This document shows positions 22,053 to 22,287 of a stretch of 44,264 bases of DNA, piece after piece (position 1 is the first letter of the stretch; each line of letters begins with the position of its first letter). Made by a program: the position numbers and the translations under genes. The notes beneath the pieces are model-generated. The model saw only the letters and a program-made list of their open reading frames with translations. It was not told where the DNA came from and did no database searches. The stretch comes from Escherichia phage vB_EcoS_PS2. Location of the stretch: the sequence record PV637039.1. The stretch is one strand, 5' to 3'.

Positions 22053-22075
22053 AAGCCCCGTTCGGGGCTTATTTG
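22053..22075. terminator. rho-independent terminator, bidirectional
   Basis: GCCCC-GTTC-GGGGC hairpin flanked by T-runs on both strands between convergent genes. Confidence 0.55.
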
Positions 22076-22287
22076 CAAGTGGTGCTTTTGAAGTGGTCTA
22101 CAGAAACATACTGGAAGTTGAAAGGGTAGCCCACCCGCAACATTTTATGCCCGCTAAAATCGGCAACACCGAACACCGGGACCGAGTATTGCATGCCGCT
22201 ATTCACATATGTTGCGTCGCAGATTTTTGACGGCATACCGGCACAACCTGACAGAAGAACCGCACAAATCATAATTAAAGTTTTCAT
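22069..22287 (-). CDS. small outer-membrane lipoprotein (Cor-like superinfection exclusion candidate)
   Basis: ATG at 22287 with AGGAGA RBS; signal peptide MKTLIMICAVLLSGC with lipobox LSGC; 72 aa; opposite strand inside the tail module. Confidence 0.55.
   Translation of the reverse strand: MKTLIMICAVLLSGCAGMPSKICDATYVNSGMQYSVPVFGVADFSGHKMLRVGYPFNFQYVSVDHFKSTTCK

Follow-up and report, generated by a model that had tools for sequence, protein, structure and literature searches.

The Cor family of phage exclusion lipoproteins (NF047972 / PHROG 1119) includes the Cor proteins of phages T1, phi80, N15, HK022 and mEp167. In the GenBank record of phi80, Cor is described as a lipoprotein that is processed by signal peptidase II and blocks FhuA, and the gene is annotated with its own promoter and start site. 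Two recent papers reach a likeness between Cor and the T5 lipoprotein Llp from predictions (PMC13164509; bioRxiv 10.64898/2026.03.26.714494); in one of them, AlphaFold3, run with FhuA residues 1–70 left out, docked a T1-like Cor on the periplasmic side of FhuA with an ipTM of 0.84 (PMC13164509), and the other states that the molecular mechanism of Cor has not yet been elucidated experimentally (bioRxiv 10.64898/2026.03.26.714494). Llp (PDB 8A60 chain B) is, like Cor, a small outer-membrane lipoprotein encoded beside a receptor-binding gene, in this case in a virulent FhuA-dependent siphovirus. It carries a lipidated cysteine and a terminal disulfide and binds the periplasmic plug of FhuA (PMC9586334). 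The superinfection exclusion lipoproteins of LptD-targeting siphoviruses (Rtp45; bas18_0026 of Oekolampad) follow a logic like that of Cor, in which a periplasmic lipoprotein alters the surface loops of the receptor (PMC12685063), although their mature domain is unrelated, their target is LptDE and they are co-transcribed on the same strand with the receptor-binding gene. More generally, the loci downstream of gpJ have been described as receptor-binding loci with cognate exclusion genes (PMC8594841). In the BASEL collection, each of the ten Drexlerviridae and Dhillonvirus phages that target FhuA is reported to carry the Cor cassette (PMC13164509, section 2.5), and the association of this cassette with FhuA has already been published (PMC13164509, PMC8594841).

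The DNA analysed here, hereafter the window, is a stretch of 44,264 nucleotides from Escherichia phage vB_EcoS_PS2 (PV637039.1). It is a Dhillonvirus, with 89–94% nucleotide identity to BMA1, UAE_MI-01, mckay, bob, YD-2008.s and others, and belongs to a virulent, T1-related type of siphovirus; the BASEL work regards the genus as virulent (PMC8594841). Amid its tail genes, we identified a small gene on the opposite strand that very probably encodes a Cor-family superinfection exclusion lipoprotein of a virulent Dhillonvirus with FhuA as its terminal receptor. The features of the region are listed in Table 1.

Table 1. Coordinates of the cor gene, its predicted signals and its neighbours in the window
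Feature	Position	Strand	Evidence or remark
J-like tail tip protein, 1139 aa	17618–21037	plus	Pfam FNIII-A_GpJ, Phage-tail_3, Phage_Tail_Tip
Swapped receptor-specificity cassette	20874–22238	either	last ~55 J codons, gp22-like, gp23-like, terminator, mature cor from codon 17
gp22-like protein, 100 aa from ATG, label 'outer membrane protein'	21075–21377	plus	PHROG 557, E 3.4e-32
gp23-like protein, 223 aa, label 'membrane associated protein'	21380–22051	plus	PHROG 425, E 1.7e-66
GC-rich hairpin, probable bidirectional intrinsic terminator	22053–22070	either	between the convergent gp23-like and cor stops
cor CDS (Cor-family superinfection exclusion lipoprotein precursor)	22069–22287	minus	72 codons + TAA
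Mature Cor, 58 aa	22072–22245	minus	alignments and AF2 model; small beta-barrel predicted
Lipoprotein signal peptide of Cor, residues 1–14, MKTLIMICAVLLSG	22246–22287	minus	direct sequence reading
Ribosome-binding site AGGAG	22296–22300	minus	direct sequence reading; 8 nt 5' of the cor ATG
8-bp inverted repeat TGGTCGAG / CTCGACCA	22306–22337	either	brackets the putative -10; unique in the window, 0 expected
Putative sigma-70 cor promoter	22318–22346	minus	-35 TTGCAA (22341–22346), 17-nt spacer, extended -10 TG-T-AATACT (22318–22326)
9-mer GCAACCAAT, copy at cor	22343–22351	plus	overlaps the putative -35; invariant 5' of cor in relatives
Lateral tail fibre with C-terminal S74 intramolecular chaperone	22368–24044	plus	PHROG 1980, E 6.7e-137; Pfam Peptidase_S74

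The cor frame runs from an ATG at complement 22285–22287 to a TAA at complement 22069–22071 and encodes a precursor (MKTLIMICAVLLSGCAGMPSKICDATYVNSGMQYSVPVFGVADFSGHKMLRVGYPFNFQYVSVDHFKSTTCK) that begins with MKTLIMICAVLLSGCAGMPSK and ends in TTCK. It is the sole minus-strand gene within a plus-strand structural block spanning 56–24044. A preliminary description of this DNA, made from the sequence alone, had reported a 72-aa minus-strand reading frame with the lipobox LSGC and a ribosome-binding site, placed between tail-associated genes and the tail fibre, and each of these elements was recovered here, with the gp23-like and lateral tail fibre genes as the flanks. Across 9 Dhillonviruses, the ribosome-binding site is kept as AGG(A/G)G. 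When aligned with 8 Dhillonvirus orthologues, the frame is free of frameshifts, its variable sites fall on codon positions 1, 2 and 3 in the ratio 16/13/42, and pairwise dN/dS against the window copy is 0.04–0.09; cor is a real gene under strong purifying selection.

The same codon-position bias and dN/dS rule out a chance open reading frame, and they likewise dispose of the 60-aa plus-strand frame at 22048–22230 and of the short opposite-strand frames annotated in SM_S22 as true genes. Annotation of cor varies among Dhillonvirus records, some of which leave it as 'hypothetical' or call short frames on the wrong strand. The GenBank record of SM_S22 (401–619 of the compared stretch) is of the latter kind, with cor unannotated, two short opposite-strand frames in its place and the cor frame intact; the missing gene is probably a mis-annotation.

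Lipoproteins are exported by Sec and then processed by Lgt, LspA and Lnt at the lipobox cysteine, and by the Lol rule an alanine at position +2 predicts sorting to the outer membrane. In Cor, Lys2 and a hydrophobic stretch precede the lipobox L12-S13-G14-C15 (Cys15 codon, 22243–22245), with alanine at +2. The lipobox and the alanine, rather than aspartate, at +2 suggest that mature Cor would be sorted to the outer membrane.

Two profile libraries place the product in the Cor family. PHROG 1119, 'Cor superinfection exclusion protein', matches it over its full length (E 9.7e-27), and the NCBIfam equivalog NF047972, 'phage exclusion lipoprotein Cor', matches residues 2–71 with 57.5 bits (E 9.8e-16; curated cut-off, 31 bits), while a Pfam profile search returned no match for Cor or for the gp22-like and gp23-like proteins. 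BLASTP identity is 48% to T1 Cor and 39% to phi80 Cor, and the precursor length, lipobox cysteine and signal peptide fit the ~70–80 aa precursor of the family. The preliminary description had put the gene forward as a Cor-like superinfection exclusion candidate, to be checked by homology against Cor/Llp-type exclusion proteins. The profile matches and the identities to T1 and phi80, together with the gene order described below, bear this out, and on sequence grounds the name cor, phage exclusion lipoprotein, can be given with confidence. Its exclusion function would follow from the 39–48% identity to tested proteins; in the literature, we found no experiment on exclusion by any Dhillonvirus Cor.

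Matches to Cor by tblastn, with 85–94% identity, occur in about 76 phage records, mostly of Dhillonviruses, and most of the matched genes already bear the label Cor or super-infection exclusion protein. The closest Dhillonvirus copy is 94.4% identical, and none is identical. The annotated orthologues (jat, welsh, UAE_MI-01, bob, Envy, YD-2008.s and others) have the same flanks, promoter region and terminator. This is not a new gene, then, but a known family in a known place, already annotated in dozens of Dhillonvirus records. A word-indexed protein search found 6 close relatives only, and its repetition with the 6-sequence alignment as query found 164. Among 85 diverse homologues, C15, C23, C71, G53 and P55 are invariant, and G14, Y54, F56, V61 and F66 nearly so (Y54 and F56 in at least 90%). 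The signature of the Cor mature domain is present in the window protein, with two further cysteines near both ends (C23 and C71) and the G-Y-P-F motif. As a peculiarity of the window copy, residue 52, just before GYPF, is valine (codon 22132–22134); alanine stands there in at least 90% of the 85 homologues and in 8 of the 8 aligned Dhillonvirus orthologues.

The genomic context matches that of described Cor cassettes. The local order is J, gp22-like, gp23-like, GC-rich hairpin, cor on the minus strand and then the lateral tail fibre gene as its divergent neighbour. The T1 cassette has the same order of J, gp22 and gp23, followed by cor on the opposite strand with a shared terminator; phi80 is collinear with the window, but there cor lies on the J strand. 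In both phages, Cor resembles the window protein in length, lipobox, cysteine pair and GYPF motif. The gp22-like protein is 76% identical to phi80 gp22 and the gp23-like protein 48% to phi80 gp23, while identity to phage bob reaches 99% for J and 97% for the gp23-like protein. Bob and Envy are listed as FhuA-dependent, and the Dhillonviruses JLBYU37, JLBYU60 and Teewinot experimentally require FhuA loop 8 (PMC10373560). Given the near-identity to bob, the existence of these FhuA-dependent Dhillonviruses and the Cor cassette in the BASEL FhuA phages, the window phage almost certainly uses FhuA, with cor as the predicted cognate exclusion factor. The gp22-like and gp23-like genes appear to be parts of an FhuA-type receptor-specificity locus. 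Since they co-vary with the receptor, their products are more likely to be tail-tip receptor-binding components than the membrane proteins that their labels suggest.

Several side observations concern these two proteins. By eye, neither has a signal peptide or a hydrophobic segment. Homologues of the 223-aa gp23-like protein occur in 111 Klebsiella phage records, whereas only 2 records from Klebsiella phages came up in the search with Cor. Among FhuA-type Dhillonviruses there are two gp23-like alleles, ~55% identical to each other, and Cor is 88–94% identical across both groups. The window carries the allele of bob, mckay and UAE_MI-01; it was compared with GeorgBuechner, jat, JLBYU37, JLBYU60 and Teewinot.

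Neither an integrase nor a repressor is present in a fully annotated close relative of the window, so Cor must act in lytic growth, as lytic conversion. In temperate phages such as phi80, by contrast, cor acts from the prophage, as lysogenic conversion. The preliminary description had called the gene a moron. The term suits its structure (opposite strand, predicted promoter and terminator of its own), but not the virulent phage type or a relative that lacks integrase and repressor, and the gene is not the prophage-expressed element that the term denotes. For a virulent phage, 'lytic conversion', as with T5 Llp, is the right analogy.

The signals around cor are predictions of differing strength. 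The hairpin between the convergent stops has a perfect 8-bp stem (22053–22060 / 22063–22070) and folds with -13.9 kcal/mol on the cor strand (z = -2.9) and -12.9 kcal/mol on the plus strand (z = -1.05). Among 9 Dhillonviruses, the stem is conserved and the loop variable, and the T1 record annotates a terminator in the corresponding place, between ST31 and cor. The T-tracts beside the hairpin are short, and a consensus promoter/terminator scan called neither the hairpin nor the proposed cor promoter. The bidirectional terminator of the preliminary description is plausible as a prediction, with the conserved hairpin between convergent stops and its T1 counterpart in its favour and the short T-tracts and the absent scanner call against it.

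The putative cor promoter, with a predicted transcription start near 22311, has 8/12 consensus matches, below the scanner threshold. It is nearly invariant in 9 FhuA-type and 2 LptD-type Dhillonviruses, and the whole 95-nt region 5' of cor is highly conserved in the genus. What had been described as a motif-bearing promoter region is upheld in so far as the region is near-invariant and carries an overrepresented 9-mer (GCAACCAAT; 15 exact copies in the window against 0.51 expected), although the promoter itself stays below that threshold. Two promoter-like sites that the scanner placed at the start of the cor coding sequence (22248–22275, plus; 22295–22268, minus) were taken as chance, since 0.9 were expected. 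The arms of the inverted repeat around the putative -10 are partly maintained in relatives, with a compensated pair in jat (GGTTGAG/CTCAACC) and a single mismatch in several others; with an RNA fold z-score of only -1.8, the repeat could serve as an operator or form a hairpin in the 5' leader.

Comparison between FhuA-type and LptD-type Dhillonviruses locates the borders of an exchanged receptor module. The N-terminal part of J is common to the window and 157 phage records, only 76 of which have the whole cor region. The cor region is matched in 153 records, 77 of them in part only, and the partial matches, among those listed, cover roughly 22236–22370, a stretch that reaches from the signal peptide through leader and promoter to the beginning of the fibre gene. 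The lipoprotein of Oekolampad and 011D5 has the same first 16 residues as Cor (MKTLI[M/V]ICAVLLSGCA) and is unrelated to it from there on; Oekolampad depends on LptD, and PMC12685063 discusses its lipoprotein bas18_0026 as the exclusion protein. In blastn comparisons of the window with both phages, homology ends at 20873 and resumes at 22236–22239, at cor codon 16–17. These points define an exchangeable module made up of the J tip, the receptor-binding genes and the mature exclusion domain, bounded on its right by the lipobox. Because the promoter and signal peptide are common to unrelated lipoproteins, the module junction falls just after the lipobox, one or two codons past its cysteine. The lipoproteins of LptD-targeting siphoviruses occupy the same slot as Cor, with promoter, 5' leader and signal peptide held in common in Dhillonviruses. 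A junction within the gene at the signal peptide fits the published modular view of receptor modules, and the exact junction was not found described in a non-exhaustive literature search. We tentatively suggest, as an idea somewhat short of even odds, that the segment 22239–22350 (cor promoter, leader and signal peptide) may be a fixed 'socket' or homology arm that, with the J body as the other arm, would allow whole modules to be swapped in one step, and that GCAACCAAT on the -35 may tie expression of the exclusion gene to a common phage regulator.

The predicted fold of Cor bears a modest likeness to that of Llp. An AF2 model based on 85 sequences is a small beta-barrel with a mean pLDDT of 83.4 and values above 90 over residues 21–70, and a disulfide between Cys23 and Cys71 is probable in the mature protein. 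Among the PDB matches listed, the lowest rmsd is that to T5 Llp (8a60_B; 2.8 Å over 51 columns, TM 0.50/0.57, 25% identity), with a weak Foldseek E-value of 0.074 that by itself lacks significance, and Tudor/SH3-like barrels rank near Llp by that measure. A single-sequence PDB search with Cor gave noise only; the best PDB sequence match of the Cor profile is again 8a60_B (E 0.0011, 22 bits), over the signal peptide plus ~25 mature residues, and part of this match comes from the signal peptide. Llp and window Cor share a cysteine pattern, which in Llp consists of the lipidated cysteine and a disulfide joining both ends and in Cor is predicted to do the same, and the mechanism would be expected to be the same (PMC9586334). 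They differ in that Llp is only about 20–25% identical and falls outside the Cor profiles at the family level, and in that Llp is paired with the receptor-binding protein pb5, whereas window Cor is paired with the gp22/gp23-like proteins. There is no pb5-type receptor-binding gene beside cor, where the neighbours belong to PHROG 557 and 425.

We propose the following mechanism. After infection, host RNA polymerase would transcribe cor from its own promoter, in the direction opposite to the tail genes. The precursor would be exported by Sec and then lipidated and cleaved at Cys15 by the host enzymes Lgt, LspA and Lnt, and DsbA would make the Cys23–Cys71 disulfide, clamping the 58-aa mature beta-barrel. 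Anchored in the outer membrane on its periplasmic side, Cor would bind the periplasmic face (plug) of FhuA directly and lock the receptor, whose surface loops would then refuse the phage receptor-binding proteins, as in the allosteric mechanism of Llp. Such a block would stop superinfection by the phage itself and by other FhuA-dependent phages, and would keep progeny from being lost on the debris of lysed cells. The jamming of FhuA, in particular, is supported by the AF2 beta-barrel, the superposition on Llp and the match of the Cor profile to 8a60_B.

It is also conceivable, though unlikely, that Cor does not jam the plug as Llp does but excludes indirectly: it might act via other proteins of the outer membrane, or reduce how much FhuA is present or assembled. 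Such a route would accord with the modest structural match to Llp (TM 0.5–0.57, E 0.074) and with the description of the Cor mechanism as unresolved (10.64898/2026.03.26.714494). Moreover, T1 and phi80 need TonB, whereas T5 infection is TonB-independent (PMC10373560), so Cor and Llp may differ in detail. However, the two proteins have size, lipobox, terminal cysteine pair and predicted fold in common, and the published AlphaFold3 model puts a T1-like Cor on the periplasmic side of FhuA (ipTM 0.84; PMC13164509). Mature Cor also varies together with the FhuA-type receptor-binding genes within a single swapped cassette, the pattern that a binder specific for one receptor would be expected to show.

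Far less probable is a receptor other than FhuA, e.g. BtuB or LptD, even though Cor-like proteins have been detected in BtuB-using Markadamsvirinae (PMC13164509) and other Dhillonviruses carry an LptD-aimed lipoprotein behind an identical signal peptide (PMC12685063). The mature part of the window lipoprotein is of the Cor type and not of the LptD type, and the neighbouring genes point the same way: J and the gp23-like protein share 99% and 97% identity with their counterparts in FhuA-dependent bob, and in a comparison with phi80, also FhuA-dependent, identity is 76% for the gp22-like and 48% for the gp23-like protein. Small phage outer-membrane lipoproteins also include Rz1-type o-spanins, and size and lipobox alone would fit a lysis component of this kind (an outer-membrane spanin subunit) or some other envelope lipoprotein unrelated to exclusion. 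The chance of this is close to nil, as no spanin family was matched and the only strong matches were to Cor. Furthermore, cor stands alone beside the receptor-binding locus, neither in a lysis cassette nor nested within an i-spanin gene, and the annotated relative has separate Rz-like spanins elsewhere. An o-spanin identity was rejected for this isolated position by the tail genes, the lack of spanin matches and the location of the relative's spanins.

With exclusion through FhuA as the favoured reading, cor and the adjacent J, gp22-like and gp23-like alleles together predict FhuA use by the phage. Infected cells should turn refractory to T1, T5, phi80 and related phages and lose FhuA-dependent uptake, and this predicted refractoriness bears on the design of phage cocktails. 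The junction at the signal peptide is, in turn, a pointer for engineering, as the conserved flanks could let receptor-binding genes be replaced in one piece with the exclusion domain that matches them. The findings on cor leave current understanding unchanged.

The lateral tail fibre gene holds a second mosaic block in its central and distal portions (window 22850–23980). Homology to bob, GeorgBuechner and Oekolampad breaks at ~22801–22849 and resumes at ~23978–24048, and the whole block is covered only by BMA1.

The 9-mer GCAACCAAT occurs throughout the window, at 6228, 6242, 22343, 25275, 26953, 29518, 37111, 39923, 39977, 40012, 40294, 40384, 40415, 40934 and 42701, and probably either serves as a promoter-associated element or is bound by a phage regulator, for which a small HTH protein of the phage (window 37307–37636) would be a candidate. 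Nearly all copies lie at gene boundaries, often in pairs, with a cluster at 39.9–40.95 kb. One copy falls within a palindrome (25274–25295) and another in the spacer of a good TTGACT-17-TAATAT promoter (37110). T1 has 5 copies of the same 9-mer, against 0.65 expected.
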